Below are positions 2,653 to 8,787 of a stretch of DNA of 8,787 bases, piece after piece (the stretch's first letter is position 1; each line of letters begins with the position of its first letter). The translations under genes and the position numbers were made by a program. Origin of the DNA: a virus (Duplodnaviria; Heunggongvirae; Uroviricota; Caudoviricetes); IMG/VR virus record IMGVR_UViG_2778261176_000001; one strand, 5' to 3'. The notes beneath the pieces were generated by a model, which worked only from the letters and a program-made list of their open reading frames with translations, had not been told where the DNA came from and searched no databases.

Positions 2653-2949
2653 TCACTCCTGTTCACTGGCCTCTTTGGCCATCTTCAAATACTGTTCAGG
2701 GCAATGCGCCATAACGCGCTGAAACAGTTCCAGCGCCAGATTGCGTTGCCCCTCATTAAATGCCATTGCCATAGCGTCCATCGGTGAGATAGCGGAAAAC
2801 ACACGGCCTTTCTCCAGCACCGACCAGACAACGCGACGCCCCTGTTCACTGCTCATGACAAAGCGAATGTCATCAATTTCACGCTGTGCCATGTCACGTT
2901 GCTTACGGGCGTTTTCTTCTTTCAGTTGATCGTCTTCGTAATCTGTCAT
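2653..2949 (-). CDS. Hypothetical small phage protein (98 aa) between portal and scaffold
   Basis: ATG start overlaps the portal stop (ATGA), suggesting translational coupling; stop lies within the SD region of the scaffold gene. Charged, helical-looking. Function unknown. Confidence 0.55.
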   Translation of the reverse strand: MTDYEDDQLKEENARKQRDMAQREIDDIRFVMSSEQGRRVVWSVLEKGRVFSAISPMDAMAMAFNEGQRNLALELFQRVMAHCPEQYLKMAKEASEQE

Positions 2950-4625
2950 TGTGATTGCCCACCCTGACCACTAACTGCATTAGCCATAGCTGACAAAACA
3001 CTCGGATCCGAAGTTTTAGCTTCGCTTAGCGTCTTGGCACCCTGTGCCGCCGCCATCCCCATCGCCATCATTTGTTGCTGCTGTTGTTGCTGTGCCCGTT
3101 GCTGGCGAGCCTGCTCAACCTGTTCCTGCGGAACAATGACGGTTGGAGACACTCCGGACATATCAGCGAATGCATCGATCGCCTGATCAACGTTGAGTTT
3201 GTCGAGAGCTTCTGGTTTCGCTTGCGCAAGTTGACCAATGAAGTTAACCGTGGACGCCAGACTGGACAGGCCGATAGACTTCTGCGCCTGAGCCATGACG
3301 GAAATGTATTCGACCTTCAGGGGCATACCTTCCATCGCGTCAGGCGGTGGCGGCAGCATGTTTTTACGCACCATCATCGAGAAAGCGCGGTCAATGAGAG
3401 GGTTAAGACATTCGTCGTTCAGACGCTCCAGAACCGGCCCCAACATCAGAAGTTTTTCTTCTTTCATTTCGATCACCGCTTCAACAGGCATCGAGCGGGT
3501 ATTGATGTTCTGCAACATCATGAACAGATCGACAAAGTAGGCGCTGTTAATGATTTGACGAGTGTCCTGAATGTCTGCTACCAGATCTGCTGTACTGGGG
3601 TTAACCAGATAAGCAGGCCTGAAACCATCCTGACCAGTAATCTGATCGATATACGTGATGTCGCCAGGAAGAAGGGAGGCGCGCTGATTCTTGAGGGAAG
3701 TCGGAGCAACCATCGGCGGATTGGTGGCTTTATCAATCAACTGCGACTTGCGCTTCTGGAGAAGCTGCAATGCCTTAACAGGTCCAAGCGCCAGCATACC
3801 CGGGCATGATGATCCATAAACATCTTCGCCATTAACTTCCCAGCGCGGAGCCATAATTGGAAACTCATCAAATCCGGACTCACGCAACAACTTGTCGTTA
3901 TCGCCACCAACCTCGTAATAAACCGATTTGAATGGCTTGTTCTTGCTATCCAGCTTCGATGTATCGCGGTCAATGTTCGGGTAAACCGAATGCATCACGT
4001 CAATCCACTTCTCGTAGGTGCCGCTTTCCCACATGCTTTTTACGGATTCGCTGACGTTATTTAGCCCGAACTCCTGAACAAGCTGACGAACAGTCATAGA
4101 GAACTTGCGAAAACAGGTGTCCACACTGCCACGAGGTGAGTTAGCCAGGTAGTAACTGCCTATCGGGAATGGCATTGTGCGAATGATGTCCTCGTCATCC
4201 TCCAGCACCGCCATTGCACCAGTGCTGTATGTGCCGAGGCTTCCGTATAACTGCGGAAGAGACTGGTAGAGATTCGACTTATTGAACATATCGTTCATGC
4301 GGTTCTGCACCGCCTCGAGCCACAACTTAACAGGACCATAATCCATCATTTCAGGATCTGGCGTAGCCAGGCGAAACCACGGACGCGCAGGGCTTGTGAT
4401 GCCTGACATCATGCCGCTGGCGAGAGTGCGCGCCGCCATAGTCCCGGTCGAATCAATAATGCGTGTATTGCGTCGATCGTTACGGTTGACCTCAGAAGTC
4501 AGAAAGCGGGAACCACGCGGGTTGATGTAATCACTCAACTCGCGCCAGTGCGGCTCGAACGACTGACGCTCGCTTTCAAGTTGTGCGAACTGTTTGTTCA
4601 ATCGCTCTTTAGTTGTTTCCGCCAT
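2946..4625 (-). CDS. Portal protein (T7 gp8-like head-to-tail connector family)
   Basis: 559-aa ORF with ATG start and GGAG SD. The N-terminal pattern and the Gln/Ala/Met-rich C-terminal tail (QQRAQQQQQQQMMAMGMAAAQGA...) resemble T7 gp8 as recalled from memory, not from an alignment. Confidence 0.85.
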   Translation of the reverse strand: MAETTKERLNKQFAQLESERQSFEPHWRELSDYINPRGSRFLTSEVNRNDRRNTRIIDSTGTMAARTLASGMMSGITSPARPWFRLATPDPEMMDYGPVKLWLEAVQNRMNDMFNKSNLYQSLPQLYGSLGTYSTGAMAVLEDDEDIIRTMPFPIGSYYLANSPRGSVDTCFRKFSMTVRQLVQEFGLNNVSESVKSMWESGTYEKWIDVMHSVYPNIDRDTSKLDSKNKPFKSVYYEVGGDNDKLLRESGFDEFPIMAPRWEVNGEDVYGSSCPGMLALGPVKALQLLQKRKSQLIDKATNPPMVAPTSLKNQRASLLPGDITYIDQITGQDGFRPAYLVNPSTADLVADIQDTRQIINSAYFVDLFMMLQNINTRSMPVEAVIEMKEEKLLMLGPVLERLNDECLNPLIDRAFSMMVRKNMLPPPPDAMEGMPLKVEYISVMAQAQKSIGLSSLASTVNFIGQLAQAKPEALDKLNVDQAIDAFADMSGVSPTVIVPQEQVEQARQQRAQQQQQQQMMAMGMAAAQGAKTLSEAKTSDPSVLSAMANAVSGQGGQSQ

Positions 4626-4846: not shown

Positions 4847-4869
4847 ATCAATGACTCCGTACGCAATTA

Positions 4870-4941
4870 AATTATTACCAATTTAACCACATATGATTTA
4901 TTTATCGTAGAAGGTTGACATTTAACGCGTGAATTATTACC
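4870..4941. repeat. 10-bp direct repeat AATTATTACC (4870-4879 and 4932-4941) flanking a TTGACA hexamer (4915-4920)
   Basis: Exact 10-mer twice within an AT-rich intergenic stretch; TTGACA matches the sigma70 -35 consensus but I found no convincing -10 at 15-19 bp spacing on the plus strand. Candidate promoter/operator region. Confidence 0.35.
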
Positions 4942-5273
4942 TTTCAGGTAACTAAAGAGCTCATTCTGGTTACTAACCTGACTGGCTTGTCGTTAAATTA
5001 AACAGGTGGAGTGAGCTTTTATTTTGAGCAGTACGGCGTATGGCACATGCGCCGATAGCGGTCTGGATACGTTTAAGGGGCACCCTCCCTTGCTCGGGCA
5101 AACGAACCAGGTAGCCAGAATGTGCAAGTCGAGCGGTTTTATTCCGCGCACGGGGATTCACCATCCCGGCGATTCGGTGTGACGCCTCGGAAGAGACGAG
5201 GGTACAACGATGAGAGCATTTATGGAGCCGCGACAAAGTGTGGCGCCTTAACAGGCTAAGTGCTCTCAGCGTT

Positions 5274-5350
5274 GTGGCATTAGCTCAGTCGGACAGAGCA
5301 ACCGCCTTCTAAGCGGTTGGTCGCAGGTTCGAATCCTGCATGCCACGCCA
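5274..5350 (+). tRNA. tRNA-Arg (anticodon UCU)
   Basis: Hand-folded cloverleaf: acceptor GTGGCAT/ATGCCAC, D-stem GCTC/GAGC, anticodon stem ACCGC/GCGGT with loop CTTCTAA (anticodon TCT), 5-nt variable loop, T-arm GCAGG-TTCGAAT-CCTGC, discriminator G, encoded CCA. All stems are Watson-Crick. Confidence 0.9.
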
Positions 5351-5393
5351 GAATCACGCCTAAGGACCGTGATGCCAGAAGTTCCAGGGGCTT

Positions 5394-5438
5394 GGCGGTG
5401 ATGGTTTCCCTTGAAGGACTATCACCGCCCTTTTTACA
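5394..5438 (+). terminator. Intrinsic terminator downstream of the tRNA
   Basis: GGCGGTGAT ... ATCACCGCC (9-bp stem, 18-nt loop with internal TCC/GGA pairing) followed by CTTTTTACA. Confidence 0.6.
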
Positions 5439-5513
5439 GCAGGACGCCATTGCGATGACTTCATGCTGTAAACCCGTACAGCCACGGAAGGCATAACTCA
5501 TTGCTTCCAGTTC

Positions 5514-5537
5514 GCCCGGTTCGCCGGGCATTTTTTT
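5514..5537 (+). terminator. Terminator/attenuator hairpin immediately upstream of the 140-aa ORF's SD
   Basis: GCCCGG-TTCG-CCGGGC (6-bp GC stem, UUCG tetraloop) followed by ATTTTTTT; the U-tract runs directly into the SD AAGGTGAG of the ORF starting at 5549. Confidence 0.5.
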
Positions 5538-5548
5538 AAGGTGAGATT

Positions 5549-5971
5549 ATGAAGACAATTGATATGTTGGCTAAGTATCTAAATGAATGGCCATTAAAAT
5601 ATTCTCGTATCGTTCAGGCTGAAGACTGCATTTTTTATGGCGTTTTTGCTGGTAATGAAATGCATTACGAAGTAATTCAGAGTGAGGGACTGACCGGGTT
5701 AACTCTTAGCGAAGACCATGGTACTAGCGTTACGTTCCATGACTGGATAACAGCACAACGTTCTGAAATGGAAAAAGGCGATGTGTTTGATATTTCTCGC
5801 TCTGTTTGCGCTAAAGCAAAAAGTGATAATGATTACATGAGCGAACACTTATACAACATGAAGCTACAGTGCCTTGCCGAGGTGCTTGGTAAAAAAGCTA
5901 TTGTCGATAAACAAGGCGCCATTAGCGAAGCAAAGGCAATAAATGCTGCATTTGATGAAATTATTTTCTAG
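5549..5971 (+). CDS. Orphan hypothetical protein (140 aa), AT-rich accessory gene on the opposite strand
   Basis: ATG start with AAGGTGAG SD; followed by its own terminator. Visibly lower GC than the flanking structural genes; no signal peptide or transmembrane segment by eye; no motif I recognise; no AGA/AGG codons. Confidence 0.7.
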   Translation: MKTIDMLAKYLNEWPLKYSRIVQAEDCIFYGVFAGNEMHYEVIQSEGLTGLTLSEDHGTSVTFHDWITAQRSEMEKGDVFDISRSVCAKAKSDNDYMSEHLYNMKLQCLAEVLGKKAIVDKQGAISEAKAINAAFDEIIF

Positions 5972-5975
5972 CTCT

Positions 5976-5989
5976 GTGACATGTCACAA
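5976..5989. repeat. Perfect palindrome TGTGACATGTCACA (core GTGACATGTCAC), copy 1
   Basis: 14-bp perfect palindrome 5 nt after the stop of the 140-aa ORF and just before its terminator; the 12-bp core recurs exactly at 8427-8438. Confidence 0.8.
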
Positions 5990-5991
5990 AC

Positions 5992-6020
5992 AGCCAGCCG
6001 ATGAGCTGGCTTTGTTTTAT
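5992..6020 (+). terminator. Intrinsic terminator of the 140-aa ORF (possibly bidirectional, shared with convergent terL)
   Basis: AGCCAGC-CGATGA-GCTGGCT (7-bp stem) followed by TTGTTTTAT on the plus strand; on the minus strand the same hairpin is followed by UGUUUGUG (weaker). A second hairpin ATCCTC-ATCA-GAGGAT lies at about 6021-6036. Confidence 0.6.
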
Positions 6021-6061
6021 CCTCATCAGAGGATATCAACGACATTATCCCCACCAGCGGA

Positions 6062-7537
6062 TTAATCATAGGGATCGTAATCTGTGATGGCCTTGCCTTG
6101 CTGGTTCTGCTGCCCGGGAATTCGCAGACGCTTCGACACAGGGAAAGCAAACGTCAGCAGTAGCGCATCGCCTTTACCCGGCGAGCGCCCAAGCCGCTCC
6201 TTGATATCTTCCTTCGGTTCGATAACGATTTTACCGTCCACGCGAACTTTGTACTCTGCCGCCGACAGGTCGTCCGCTGTTTCCTGGTCATCCAGCATGC
6301 CGCCCAGCCTCAGCCATGTCTTGCATGAGTTGAACATCTCCCCACGCTTGTTAAGCATCTGCGGGTCAGTAGACGCGCCACCGAACGGAACAAGTTGCCA
6401 TGTGCGCCCCCAACCGTCACCGATTGACTTCAGACCGGTACCGTAACCAAAGTCGATGAACACTGCGTCAGCCTGATACAGGTCTTCAAAGTCAGCGATA
6501 CGCTTCGCCATAATCAGATCGTCGGTAGTCTTGTTGCCAGTCCACAGCACCTTACTGTGTAGCCCCTGCCGCAGGTATATCACCGCGTCATCAACGCCTG
6601 AATATGCCGGGTCAACACCGATTATCACCGGAGCATGCGCCACCTGCGCAGCGGTTACCACCCGTTTCATTGCCTCATCAGTAAGACCGGTAGGGATAAA
6701 CTGCAATTCAGATGCATCAGGGAATATGCCGCGCACACGGATTTTAACGAAGTCGCTGTCTTCCCCGTAGTCATCAACCCATTTCTGCAACTGCTGTTTG
6801 TTAGTGCCTTCCACCGTCCGGCTGTCAATCTGCGCACACTTCCAGCGGTGTTTATATTTGCGGAAACATTCGCGGAAACGCCCGGTGTTACGTGTAGGGT
6901 TTCCGAACGCCACCCAGATAATCTCAGTGTCTTCGTCCGTAAGCGCACCCTCAGCAACTTCCCATACCAGATCCGCAATGTTCGACGCTTCGTCGAAAAC
7001 CACGATGATGCGTTTGCGCTCGTTGTGTAGTCCGGCGAATGCCTCAGTGTTGTGCTCAGACCAGGGGATTGCGTCAGCTCGCCACCGCTTGTCGTGCCCA
7101 GGATCATTGCTGTACATCGCGGTAGCGGTACAGGTAAACCAGTCTTTCGTGATAGCAAGGTTCGACCACTTGATAATTTCCGGCCAGGTCTTCGTTCGTA
7201 GCTGGTTGTCGGTGTTGGCGGTCACCACGACCTTACAATCCTCGCAAGTGGACATGCCCCAGTTGATCAGCATTGAGATGAATGCGGATTTACCAATACC
7301 GTGACCAGAAGCGCGTGCCAGCATAAGCGGCTGATAGCGCGTCTCTGGATTCTGCAGGTGATCACGTATCTCTCGGAACGCATCAGCCTGCCACTGACGT
7401 GGGCCGGTGGCATGTGCCAGTTCAGTCCCCTCTTCCCCCCACGGGAACGCATAGAGGGCATAGCCAAGCGGATCGTGAGTGAACCCTGCAATATCCTCGA
7501 TCAACTGCTCTTCAGGAGATAACGCTGTATCTGTCAC
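6062..7537 (-). CDS. terL: Terminase large subunit (ATPase + nuclease)
   Basis: 491-aa ORF; Walker A-like SGHGIGKS, Walker B-like IIVVFDEAS, C-terminal acidic nuclease-like motifs (IIGVDPAYSG, FIDFGYG); GTG start overlaps the terS stop (GTGA) with AGGA upstream. Confidence 0.85.
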   Translation of the reverse strand: MTDTALSPEEQLIEDIAGFTHDPLGYALYAFPWGEEGTELAHATGPRQWQADAFREIRDHLQNPETRYQPLMLARASGHGIGKSAFISMLINWGMSTCEDCKVVVTANTDNQLRTKTWPEIIKWSNLAITKDWFTCTATAMYSNDPGHDKRWRADAIPWSEHNTEAFAGLHNERKRIIVVFDEASNIADLVWEVAEGALTDEDTEIIWVAFGNPTRNTGRFRECFRKYKHRWKCAQIDSRTVEGTNKQQLQKWVDDYGEDSDFVKIRVRGIFPDASELQFIPTGLTDEAMKRVVTAAQVAHAPVIIGVDPAYSGVDDAVIYLRQGLHSKVLWTGNKTTDDLIMAKRIADFEDLYQADAVFIDFGYGTGLKSIGDGWGRTWQLVPFGGASTDPQMLNKRGEMFNSCKTWLRLGGMLDDQETADDLSAAEYKVRVDGKIVIEPKEDIKERLGRSPGKGDALLLTFAFPVSKRLRIPGQQNQQGKAITDYDPYD

Positions 7538-8130
7538 TGATTACAATCCTGACGTTCTTTGAGTCGCTTCCTGGCTGCTGCTATGCGATCAGCAATTGTC
7601 ACATTCACATTAACATCCAGGCGTTCTTTGAATGCATTGACATCGACGTGCTTACCAATCAGCTCAAGGTTCTTCACCTTGTCAGGCCATTTAATTTTTT
7701 TGAGGATTGTCTCTATCGAATCCTCGTTCATGTTCATGATGGTCGATGACAGATCAAAGCCGCTAAGCGTAGTGCGCCAGATTTTCGGCCACTCGCGGAT
7801 TGGCTTAAGGCTCCCATCGTCGTTGAGGATATCAATCACGTCCATCTGGTCGATCTCCACCAGGCGCATGAGAACGTAATCAGCACTGACACGCATTCGT
7901 TTGTTGCGCTCTTCCATCAGCTCGGCAATCCGTTTTTGAATGCGTTCATCGCGCATCATGACACTGGCTTTAACTGCCGCTGTATTTGGGGAGAATCCTG
8001 CGTTAATCGCTGCCTGAGTCTGGTTTTCAGGCGTTTTGATGTATGACTGGCAATAAGCCTCCTGCATTGCTGTGAGCGGCTTAAATTGCGTTGATTTGCG
8101 TTTATAGGTTTTAGGTTCAGCAGGCATCAT
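7534..8130 (-). CDS. terS: Terminase small subunit
   Basis: Directly upstream of and overlapping terL. The N-terminal region (KPLTAMQEAYCQSYIKTPENQTQAAINAGFSPNTAAVKAS) has the LTxxQxxFxxxY pattern of small terminase subunits as recalled from memory. The ORF-track start at 8208 is a TTG whose first 26 codons would translate a terminator hairpin and tandem repeats; I place the start at the ATG pair 8125-8130 (GGTGG upstream). The ATG at 8137-8139 is also possible. Confidence 0.7.
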   Translation of the reverse strand: MMPAEPKTYKRKSTQFKPLTAMQEAYCQSYIKTPENQTQAAINAGFSPNTAAVKASVMMRDERIQKRIAELMEERNKRMRVSADYVLMRLVEIDQMDVIDILNDDGSLKPIREWPKIWRTTLSGFDLSSTIMNMNEDSIETILKKIKWPDKVKNLELIGKHVDVNAFKERLDVNVNVTIADRIAAARKRLKERQDCNQ

Positions 8131-8138
8131 AACCACCA

Positions 8139-8169
8139 TGGTAATAGTTACCGTTGTGGTAATAGTACC
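8139..8169. repeat. Tandem near-palindromic repeats GGTAATAGTTACC / GGTAATAGTACC (10-bp exact direct repeat TGGTAATAGT, 18 bp apart)
   Basis: Read directly: 8139-8152 TGGTAATAGTTACC, spacer GTTG, 8157-8169 TGGTAATAGTACC; each unit has inverted arms GGTA(A)/(T)TACC. Located between a minus-strand terminator and the terS start. Candidate operator or TerS-binding (cosB/pac-like) sites. Confidence 0.55.
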
Positions 8170-8170
8170 A

Positions 8171-8199
8171 TGCAAAATAAAGCCGCCATAGTTGGCGGC
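8171..8199 (-). terminator. Intrinsic terminator between the 70-aa gene and terS
   Basis: Minus-strand RNA: GCCGCCA-ACUA-UGGCGGC (7-bp GC-rich stem) followed by UUUAUUUUG. Confidence 0.6.
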
Positions 8200-8204
8200 A
8201 GTAT

Positions 8205-8417
8205 TCAAAGTCCATCAAATTCATCGTAAAAACTCTCGTCAAGATACCCTTCCCATTTACCGCGAATGAAAATTACATCCTCGCCGCAAGGGTGCTGACT
8301 GTCGATAACTATATCCCTCCTGGCGCAACCATACTTATGCATGAGAAATTTAACCTCTTTCGGAAAATTTGCTGAGTTATCTCTCATATCTTCAAGGTCG
8401 TAGCGTATTTTTGGCAT
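8205..8417 (-). CDS. Hypothetical small protein (about 70 aa), AT-rich
   Basis: ORF-track ORF 8205..8438 starts at a GTG formed by the palindrome itself; the ATG at 8415-8417 is preceded by GAAGGTG and is the more likely start (MPKIRYDLEDM...). AT-rich relative to neighbours; function unknown. Confidence 0.5.
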   Translation of the reverse strand: MPKIRYDLEDMRDNSANFPKEVKFLMHKYGCARRDIVIDSQHPCGEDVIFIRGKWEGYLDESFYDEFDGL

Positions 8418-8426
8418 AACACCTTC

Positions 8427-8438
8427 GTGACATGTCAC
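8427..8438. repeat. Perfect palindrome GTGACATGTCAC, copy 2
   Basis: Exact second copy of the 12-bp palindrome seen at 5977-5988; it contains the TGA stop of the upstream Cys-rich ORF and lies about 10 nt upstream of the 70-aa ORF's ATG. Confidence 0.8.
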
Positions 8439-8671
8439 ACTATTAATTTCGTTTCATGCCAGCCTTTAGTCACCCAGCATTGCGAGTCACCATTACACGG
8501 GCATGAATTAACTGGAACTCTCTCGCCGCACTTACCGCAACGTTTTCTGCTGATCGATTTTATACGCCCGCGCACGCGTGCATCATCCTGGCGGATCAGT
8601 AACGCTATATACTCACCAAATTCGTAAGGCGCACGCCCGGGGCGACGCGTGGCACAGTTACTCTCCAGCAT
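8435..8671 (-). CDS. Hypothetical Cys-rich small protein (78-92 aa), possible zinc-ribbon
   Basis: ORF-track ORF 8435..8713 starts at GTG without SD; the ATG at 8669-8671 is preceded by AGGAAA at 5-nt spacing. C-terminal CGKCGERVPVNSCPCNGDSQC (CxxC...CxC...C) suggests a metal-binding ribbon; Arg-rich. GC-rich, unlike the adjacent 70-aa gene. Confidence 0.45.
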   Translation of the reverse strand: MLESNCATRRPGRAPYEFGEYIALLIRQDDARVRGRIKSISRKRCGKCGERVPVNSCPCNGDSQCWVTKGWHETKLIV

Positions 8672-8787
8672 TTCAATTTCCTGAGCATCAAGCACAATTT
8701 CCAGCTTACGCACACCAGATGCAGCTTGTCTGTGAAGTGGTCAACAAAAACTGGCCACCGCGTTAGAGTTTTTCCAGTATCGATTTT

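Follow-up and report, generated by a model that had tools for sequence, protein, structure and literature searches.

A 14-bp palindrome at gene 3′ ends in epsilon15/phiV10-like and other temperate phages: a candidate operator of the small regulator gp49/PhiV10p55

The 8,787-nt stretch of the tailed-phage record IMGVR_UViG_2778261176_000001 in IMG/VR (hereafter, the window) contains exactly two copies of the 12-bp palindrome GTGACATGTCAC, at positions 5976–5987 and 8427–8438. Comparison with related phages places both copies in a set of three fixed sites and extends the motif to 14 bp, Y-GTGAC-NN-GTCAC-R, a two-fold symmetric sequence shared by loci that encode a small protein named gp49 in epsilon15 and PhiV10p55 in phiV10 (phrog_536). 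That this 14-bp site is a real functional element is hardly in doubt. The overall explanation favored here, with slightly better than even confidence, is that the site is the operator of the gp49/PhiV10p55 protein, placed at gene 3′ ends beside terminators. A preliminary description of this DNA had reported two exact 12-mers; the pair is real and belongs to the larger, family-wide set, whereas the span of 5976–5989 given there for the first copy is two bases too long.

The double occurrence is far beyond chance, as had been supposed. Dinucleotide-preserving shuffles of the window contain on average 0.01 copies of GTGAC-NN-GTCAC; of 200 such shuffles, not one reached two. The window contains only six GTGAC and 11 GTCAC pentamers, and therefore about 0.0075 pairs are expected at any one spacing. 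A third copy with one mismatch, GTGCCATGTCAC, is present at 2886 within a coding region; it was not retained as a site because it is absent from HEMP4, epsilon15 and Tyrion, and is attributed to chance resemblance. The concern that host DNA might carry the motif at similar density was not borne out: no site satisfying the 14-bp rule was found in the 75 kb of the PH444 record outside its epsilon15-like prophage, and lambda contains no site with the two-nucleotide (N2) spacing.

By megablast, the window belongs to the phiV10/epsilon15 group of temperate podophages (Uetakevirus), with 98% identity to HEMP4, PAS61 and phiV10 and 78–82% identity to epsilon15 and Tyrion. Despite the distance of the latter two, the exact 12-mer was found at the same three places in the whole genomes of PAS61, HEMP4, epsilon15 and Tyrion. 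Site S1 coincides with the stop codon of the gp49/PhiV10p55 gene, upstream of terS. Site S2 lies 4 nt behind the terL terminator hairpin in these four genomes and in phiV10. Site S3, about 17 kb away, lies 0–2 nt ahead of the terminator closing the long structural operon. The three sites are at 39612, 2142 and 19517 in epsilon15 and at 41755, 2702 and 20377 in Tyrion. All three places are also occupied in phiV10, where S1 spans the record junction and has one mismatch, and TL-2011b has S1 and an S3-type copy and no exact S2. The window holds S1 and S2, and the S3 position would fall outside it. In the window and its relatives, all three sites show the order stop codon, site, terminator along the direction of the ending gene. 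The epsilon15 record annotates repressor, IHF, RNase III and integrase sites, and nothing at its three motif positions. In TL-2011b, the S3-type site-plus-terminator (32282) follows the ant (anti-repressor) gene of a P22 immI-like arc-ant module and not the last structural gene; the cassette therefore moves with, or stays beside, different genes. The features of the window on which the argument depends are as follows.

5975..5988 (12-mer core 5976–5987): site S2, the first copy, a perfect 14-bp palindrome, TGTGACATGTCACA
8426..8439 (12-mer 8427–8438): site S1, the second copy, cGTGACATGTCACa
5992..6021, plus strand: terminator hairpin behind terL (hairpin 5992–6011), AGCCAGCCGATGAGCTGGCT followed by TTGTTTTATC
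8172..8199, minus strand: intrinsic-terminator-like hairpin between S1 and terS (hairpin 8199–8182), GCCGCCAACTATGGCGGC followed by a T-run
8435..8732, minus strand: remnant of the regulator gene (gp49/PhiV10p55 family), the 3′ 93 codons and stop
8729..8787: end of an IS911-family (IS3-like) insertion sequence (IS), interrupting the regulator gene at about codon 19–20

Along the minus strand, the late-gene order is a Cys-rich open reading frame (ORF), the second copy, a 70-aa ORF, the terminator-like hairpin, terS, terL, the other hairpin and the first copy. A 140-aa AT-rich ORF (5549..5971) and tRNA-Arg(TCT) (5274–5350) lie on the plus strand, convergent toward terL. The local positions agree with those first described. 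S2 is 4 nt past the TAG stop (5969–5971) of the 140-aa ORF and 4 nt ahead of the stem-loop at 5992–6011, and thus lies between the end of this accessory ORF and the terminator that it shares with terL. In S1, the minus-strand TGA (8437–8435) is the stop codon of the Cys-rich ORF, and the site is 9 nt upstream of the ATG (8417) of the 70-aa ORF. The switch in composition described at both copies was also confirmed, with GC fractions of 0.39–0.42 in the 140-aa ORF versus 0.53 in terL, and 0.42 in the 70-aa ORF versus 0.49 beyond it. The hairpin at 5992..6021 is a strong terminator toward the 140-aa ORF direction, with a weak T-run (GTTTGTG) toward the terL direction; the phiV10 record annotates it as a terminator at 2238–2257. 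The hairpin between S1 and terS is kept in phiV10, PAS61, TL-2011b and epsilon15, and is annotated as a terminator in epsilon15 (39646–39672).

The full motif was defined in 80 phiV10-like contigs, where position −1 is Y in 97% and position +12 is R in 97%. The combinations of the two flanks (TA 20, CG 10, mixed 38) fit independence, as expected if a symmetric protein reads half-sites rather than if an RNA or cruciform stem is extended. The spacing is strict. Among 34 loci carrying the regulator gene (632 kb, from different bacterial species), GTGAC-Nk-GTCAC was observed 51 times with k = 2 and never with k = 0, 1 or 3–8. The 80 phiV10-like viral contigs (1.38 Mb) gave 131 occurrences with k = 2, three with k = 5 and none otherwise. 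In the combined 2 Mb, N2 was thus counted 182 times, compared with three times for all other spacings from 0 to 8; in 48ST307, it occurs three times, and the other spacings never. The target duplex proposed for gp49/PhiV10p55 is YGTGACATGTCACR.

What connects the motif with the gp49/PhiV10p55 protein? Homologues with 30–66% identity were detected by tblastn in the myovirus ZF40, P2-like Yersinia phages, the N15-like phages phiKO2 and 48ST307, and Vibrio and Aeromonas phages. The 34 diverse loci span podo-, P2-like, N15-like and ZF40-like phages. The TGA within the motif is the regulator's own stop codon in 21 of the 34 loci, and the two lie within 50 nt of each other in four more. These 21 loci share the register …GTG TGA CATGTCAC, and the last codon of the regulator is always N-Y-G because the site sequence requires it. 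An operator for a dimeric regulator is accordingly the best supported of the three roles initially suggested, as the motif co-occurs with, and usually overlaps the stop of, a ribbon-helix-helix (RHH)/zinc gene. Sites in representative distant phages are as follows.

ZF40: TGTGACATGTCACA, 2 nt past the regulator stop; two further sites flank the cI-cro-cII region
Yersinia P2-like phage: TTGTGACGCGTCACAA, over the regulator stop; no other site
phiKO2 and 48ST307: GTGACTGGTCAC, over the regulator stop; two further sites with TG/CA centre, in repA and in the anti-repressor operon leader
Vibrio K303: GTGACACGTCAC, 226 bp downstream of the regulator stop; two further sites, one of them 19 nt before terS

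Epsilon15-like and ZF40-like phages have AT as the central dinucleotide, six P2-like loci of Yersinia have GC, and both N15-like phages have TG at all three sites. The β-strand residues of the protein differ between the same clades, while R8, R13 and R15 are invariant. ZF40 (5125 and 7622) and five further loci have two sites 2.1–2.5 kb apart around the immunity region, the first within the 3′ portion of a cII-like gene and the other within gp08; this spacing resembles that of S1 and S2. Each N15-like phage has exactly three sites, at 9510, 14390 and 20267 in phiKO2 and at 2894, 8952 and 13297 in 48ST307. The repA site is about 630 nt into the gene. On the antisense strand, the site in the anti-repressor leader makes up the loop of a hairpin that resembles a terminator.

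The Cys-rich ORF (8435..8713, minus strand) had been described as a protein of 92 aa. It is in fact the 3′ part of an IS-truncated gene for a 112-aa protein, that of epsilon15 gp49 and PhiV10p55, and is 96–98% identical to 112-aa E. coli prophage proteins. PhiV10p55 matches phrog_536 ("transcriptional regulator") over residues 1–111 with an E-value of 1.5e-54. The family has no NCBIfam match and no Pfam family at E ≤ 0.1 except the spurious DUF4457, and a PDB profile search yielded only noise. PADLOC defence models matched none of the regulator, the 70-aa ORF and the 140-aa ORF. In an alignment of six distant members, the arginine-rich N-terminal helix is invariant (A6, R8, R13, R15) and is followed by a strand/helix/helix core and then a CxxC-x8-C-x7-C (Cys4) motif. 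The AF2 model shows the β-strand/helix/helix arrangement of an RHH fold together with the Cys4 motif, whereas sequence profiles of the Pfam RHH families (Arc/MetJ/CopG) do not recognize the protein.

In the window, the regulator gene is broken. Similarity to the relatives does not extend beyond 8732, an in-frame stop is present upstream, and the gene lacks its first ~19 codons, those of the invariant R8, R13 and R15 among them. The segment 8729–8787 matches annotated IS911 family elements at 100%; these are present in up to 24 copies per E. coli genome and also on plasmids. The exact junction between IS911 and the regulator gene was found in no complete E. coli genome of the collection, the best matches stopping at 8732. 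Because the insertion removes the N-terminal helix, the regulator of this prophage is probably inactive, and for the same reason both sites in the window are probably unoccupied relics.

Across the family, the sites are concentrated at gene 3′ ends. Among 79 distinct sites, 57 (72%) either overlap the stop codon of an ORF of 70 aa or more or follow it by no more than 15 nt, compared with 10% for random positions and for lone GTGAC pentamers. Two main registers were observed, one with the stop inside the motif (35 sites) and one with the stop followed by 4 nt (13 sites). An intrinsic terminator is present within 60 nt after the site for 44 of 195 distinct sites, compared with 22 of 975 random positions. 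The sites lie within transcription units and away from promoters, and no consistent promoter adjoins them.

These observations suggest the following mechanism. It is rather probable, judging from the association of gene and site, that the co-encoded regulator binds the site, as a symmetric dimer or dimer of dimers. The two-fold logo with independent flanks would fit a dimer that inserts its paired β-strands into the major groove at a symmetric operator. The GTGAC half-sites, which are invariant, would be read by the equally invariant N-terminal arginines, and the central dinucleotide, which varies, by the variable β-strand. That the bound site works as a 3′-end transcription barrier is a more tentative step, argued by analogy. 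In this scheme, the bound regulator would bar RNA polymerase at operon ends, and the polymerase would stall just short of the stop codon of the upstream gene in a LacI-like manner; where the stop falls within the site or 4 nt ahead of it, the stalled enzyme would leave this codon untranscribed. A barrier at S1 would result in autoregulation of the regulator gene. Together, the barriers may act as insulators between the early operon, terS-terL, the antisense accessory genes and the structural operon. Accessory genes would gather beside these fixed sites, which would therefore resemble mosaic joints.

Several points weigh against this explanation. The link between regulator and site rests on association, and the forward test used loci that had been chosen for carrying the regulator gene. 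In the reverse test, the gene lay inside the stretch in just 32 of 120 motif-bearing IMG/VR stretches, which are partial contigs of 2–15 kb each. SaltyDalty-like lambdoid phages make up 18 of these 120 stretches, with two conserved sites each, and contain no phrog_536 homologue by tblastn, unfiltered hmmsearch or Cys pattern. Further, a terminator is missing from the vicinity of 77% of the sites, and some sites are internal to genes (cII-like, repA and Q-like). The protein family has no Pfam or PDB sequence relatives, and the AF2 model is a monomer of moderate confidence. The barrier step itself is an inference by analogy.

Comparison with known systems gives this analogy its form. The lacI gene has an operator at its own 3′ end that causes trans-translation (PMC13584721, PMC3985003). 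As these two sources relate it, bound LacI is thought to halt RNA polymerase before the stop codon, leading to non-stop mRNA, tagging by transfer-messenger RNA (tmRNA) and autoregulation (Abo et al., 2000, via PMC13584721, PMC3985003). The likeness lies in an operator at the end of the gene for its own binding protein. However, LacI is a helix-turn-helix tetramer of the LacI/GalR family with its main operator at the promoter, whereas the phage protein is predicted to be RHH and its motif has no evident promoter-proximal site. The 3′-end position is the rule in the phages (72%) and auxiliary in lacI, and the phage roadblock is a proposed one. Short palindromic operators are also used by the RHH repressors P22 Arc, Mnt, MetJ and CopG and by the type II antitoxins ParD and MazE. 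Unlike these, the phage protein shows no sequence similarity to the group and has an extra C-terminal Cys4 motif and helix; its sites lie at gene 3′ ends rather than promoters and occur as one to three dispersed single sites per genome rather than tandem arrays. The stoperators of mycobacteriophage L5 reportedly (in work of Brown et al. from 1997) are sites of the repressor gp71, away from promoters in short intergenic gaps of operons, where they block elongating RNA polymerase. The elongation-block logic proposed here would be the same. Stoperators are asymmetric 13-mers, about 24–30 per genome, orientation-dependent and bound by the prophage immunity repressor. The phage motif, in contrast, is palindromic and present in one to three copies, and the immunity repressor has its own operators, ATTACC-N5-GGTAAT.

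A bolder extension is doubtful, and is regarded as less probable than the barrier itself. The regulator gene and its stop-codon site may form a portable two-part module that, in at least five unrelated temperate phage architectures, installs 3′-end "stop signs" with silencing through tmRNA. Chosen genes would then give non-stop messages; candidates are the regulator itself and antisense accessory, cII-like, replication and anti-repressor genes. The bound protein would also insulate convergent operons, and the sites would anchor accessory-gene swaps.

The SaltyDalty-like phages are also central to the main rival explanation, which we consider rather unlikely, namely, that a host protein common to Enterobacterales, Vibrionales and Aeromonadales (a MatP-like or SlmA-like nucleoid protein or another factor) binds the motif, that phages position it at gene ends to their own advantage, and that the regulator gene merely adjoins one copy. 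The hosts of the motif-bearing phages are Escherichia, Salmonella, Klebsiella, Yersinia, Vibrio and Aeromonas, a range that we take to match that of MatP and SlmA. SaltyDalty-like phages keep their sites without a regulator homologue, so the motif is wider than the regulator family, and in these phages, as far as their sequences tell, another factor must bind it. In SaltyDalty (15420 and 18870) and five further loci of this type, the first site covers both the stop (TGA) of a YdaS/Cro-like gene and the start (ATG) of a DUF4222 gene, and the second lies inside a Q-like gene, with invariant half-sites and a variable centre. No kinship was found between this DUF4222 gene and the 70-aa ORF that follows S1.

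The half-sites, too, are identical to those of matS, the 13-bp palindrome GTGAC-RNY-GTCAC (GTGACRNYGTCAC; PMC6907758). However, matS has a spacing of three nucleotides, which was not observed once in the 632 kb and 1.38 Mb examined, and matS sites, which belong to the terminus macrodomain of the E. coli chromosome, show no attachment to the ends of genes. The phage protein also has no counterpart of the four-helix bundle through which MatP reads DNA. The SlmA site, GTGAGTACTCAC, differs at key positions 5 and 8. Phages of the same host genus have different centres, TG at three of three sites in Klebsiella N15-like phages and AT in an epsilon15-like prophage of Klebsiella. The 75 kb of other E. 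coli/phage DNA without a strict site also argues against a host factor, and such a factor would leave the overlap with the regulator stop across five phage architectures unexplained. CRP had already been set aside on spacing, correctly so: the first copy carries the half-site letters TGTGA/TCACA, but with N4 rather than the N6 of TGTGA-N6-TCACA, and the outer T/A is missing from the second copy and from most sites of the family, whose conserved core is GTGAC and not TGTGA.

The mosaic joints found at the sites bear on a second and less probable alternative, which we consider unlikely, namely, that the palindrome is a recombination linker for module exchange and has no protein-binding role of its own. 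The 40-bp arms flanking 199 sites were clustered. The regulator arm at S1 has at least five different right-hand partners, among them the 70-aa ORF in 26 loci and a mini-ORF remnant in 53 loci. For the terL-terminator arm at S2, the partners are the ends of at least eight different accessory genes, the 140-aa ORF being one, and several of these ends were also found beside another kind of terminator arm. In the window, each copy adjoins an AT-rich accessory ORF, and these phages encode RecT/RecE-type recombinases. On the other hand, 12–14 bp is very short for homology-driven exchange. Sites in the conserved coding sequence of cII-like, repA and Q-like genes have no joint, and their half-sites stay invariant while centre and flanks drift. 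A spacing fixed at N2, Y/R flanks and a centre that differs between clades speak for a symmetric protein that recognizes the site. Joints are expected in any case where a site must stay and its neighbours are dispensable. We read the joints as a consequence of fixed, selected sites with dispensable neighbours. Of the module-exchange role suggested at the outset, the observation thus stands, with one conserved arm joined to many sequences at the palindrome; a causal part of the site in the exchange is conjectural.

It is improbable that the element acts in RNA, as a 3′-end hairpin stabilizing transcripts, as part of a terminator, or as a target that the regulator binds through its arginine-rich N-terminus or zinc motif in the style of N-boxB or Com-mom mRNA. 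The sites are transcribed and lie at ORF 3′ ends, often with a terminator hairpin 0–4 nt further on; the N-terminus of the regulator is indeed rich in arginine; and the minimum-energy fold of the first copy includes a small hairpin next to the terminator. Yet the 12-mer hairpin amounts to just −1.2 kcal/mol, no better than shuffles, and is omitted from the fold of the second copy. The half-sites are invariant and without covariation, the Y/R flanks have no preference for complementarity, transcription passes through the asymmetric centre of the N15-like sites in both orientations, and Rfam gave no match except the tRNA. The 12-mer was also dismissed as an intrinsic terminator in its own right: with this energy and no T-run, it adjoins terminators without being one.

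A packaging signal (pac or cos accessory) for the flanked terminase genes, the last of the roles initially suggested, is very improbable. The copies in the window do bracket terS-terL, Vibrio K303 has one site 19 nt upstream of terS, and the GenBank records of phiV10 and Tyrion open inside S1, that of Tyrion being cut at the dyad centre, between GTGACA and TGTCAC. However, the third conserved copy is 17 kb off, at the end of the structural operon, and the sites of P2-like, N15-like and ZF40-like phages are at the early-operon end, repA, the anti-repressor leader or the flanks of the immunity region. Motif and gene thus occur in cos-type P2-like and N15-like phages away from the terminase genes, unlike pac or cos sites, which would be located with these genes across the family; a packaging role is therefore not supported. 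The record starts are not documented physical ends, and opening inside S1 probably follows from starting after the stop codon of the last gene. A paper on epsilon15 packaging contains no statement on genome ends.

Other candidates were rejected more simply. For a promoter element, GTGACA is −35-like and the first copy has one 10/12 promoter-like match, and no −10 is conserved at other sites or in relatives. A late activator site is contradicted by the S1–terS distance, which varies from about 95 to 305 bp, and by S2 and S3, which are 0.4–1.4 kb from the next late promoter or Rep operator. Q-like antitermination would need a promoter-proximal arrangement, which is absent, and ZF40 and phiKO2 have separate Q-like genes. 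Against crossover sites of an invertase or resolvase, no recombinase accompanies the sites, and the core has complete symmetry. Restriction/methylation targets and LexA, FNR and SlmA sites were set aside for lack of fit between the sequences.

The remaining features of the window are as follows.

2946..4625, minus strand: portal gene, followed by head genes
5549..5971, plus strand: 140-aa AT-rich accessory ORF ("moron", phrog_4846), antisense to the late genes
6062..7537, minus strand: terL, from the ORF and annotations in relatives
7534..8127, minus strand: terS (Terminase_2, PF03592, E-value 1.2e-29), likely start ATG 8127 (MPAEPK…)
8130–8144 and 8148–8162: two palindromes (TTACC-N5-GGTAA) resembling operators of the prophage repressor (Rep), immediately ahead of terS
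8205..8417, minus strand: 70-aa AT-rich accessory ORF (phrog_1541), function not assigned, directly after S1

The 70-aa ORF is polymorphic by insertion or deletion: HEMP4, PAS61 and phiV10 lack it and retain just its first and last codons as the mini-ORF MHDEFDGF*; the full ORF is present in about a third of phiV10-like contigs. The 140-aa ORF, which has no Pfam, PADLOC or NCBIfam match, belongs with tRNA-Arg(TCT) to an antisense accessory block between terL and the portal operon (4866–6061). This block contains two further terminator-like hairpins (5394–5429 and 5514–5529) and an 83-aa ORF (5280–5531, minus strand), the counterpart of the annotated PhiV10p04, which overlaps the tRNA and is probably spurious.

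An alternative terS start, TTG 8208, was listed by the ORF tool and is annotated in the phiV10 (window 7534–8208 = phiV10 41–715) and PAS61 records. It would read across the terminator hairpin and the Rep operators. The shorter start (MPAEPK…, window 8127), annotated in epsilon15 and TL-2011b, is more plausible. The TTACC-N5-GGTAA motif has three matches in the window (4937–4951, 8130–8144 and 8148–8162) compared with 0.12 expected, and the epsilon15 record annotates this type of motif as a repressor binding site at seven places. The 12-mer palindromes have a different sequence and are not Rep operators (ATTACC-N5-GGTAAT). Because Rep-type sites adjoin the upstream ends of terS and of the gp3/portal operon, direct repression of the late operons by the immunity repressor is suggested.

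Epsilon15/phiV10-like phages are common prophages and are used as O157 and Salmonella reporter and typing phages; to our knowledge, late-gene and boundary control in this group is essentially uncharacterized. In the literature searched, the 12-mer and its variants appeared in no relevant context, the pairing of regulator and site was not described, and nothing was found on gp49; the GenBank records do not annotate the motif sites. A small regulator with a palindromic operator is an already known kind of element. The new aspects are that the site coincides with the regulator's stop codon and recurs at the ends of other genes, that gene and site are portable as a pair between phage architectures, and the RHH-Cys4 family itself, uncharacterized so far.

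Overall, the analysis provides a precise cis element of 14 bp in three copies and a candidate trans factor, and the pair recurs in P2-like, N15-like, ZF40-like and Vibrio phages. A family annotated as "hypothetical protein" or "transcriptional regulator" gains a predicted operator. If the barrier proves true, it would account for the clustering of accessory genes at the sites, would offer a compact orthogonal roadblock part for engineering, and would widen a lacI-type curiosity into a general phage strategy of 3′-end gene control that has not been described previously.

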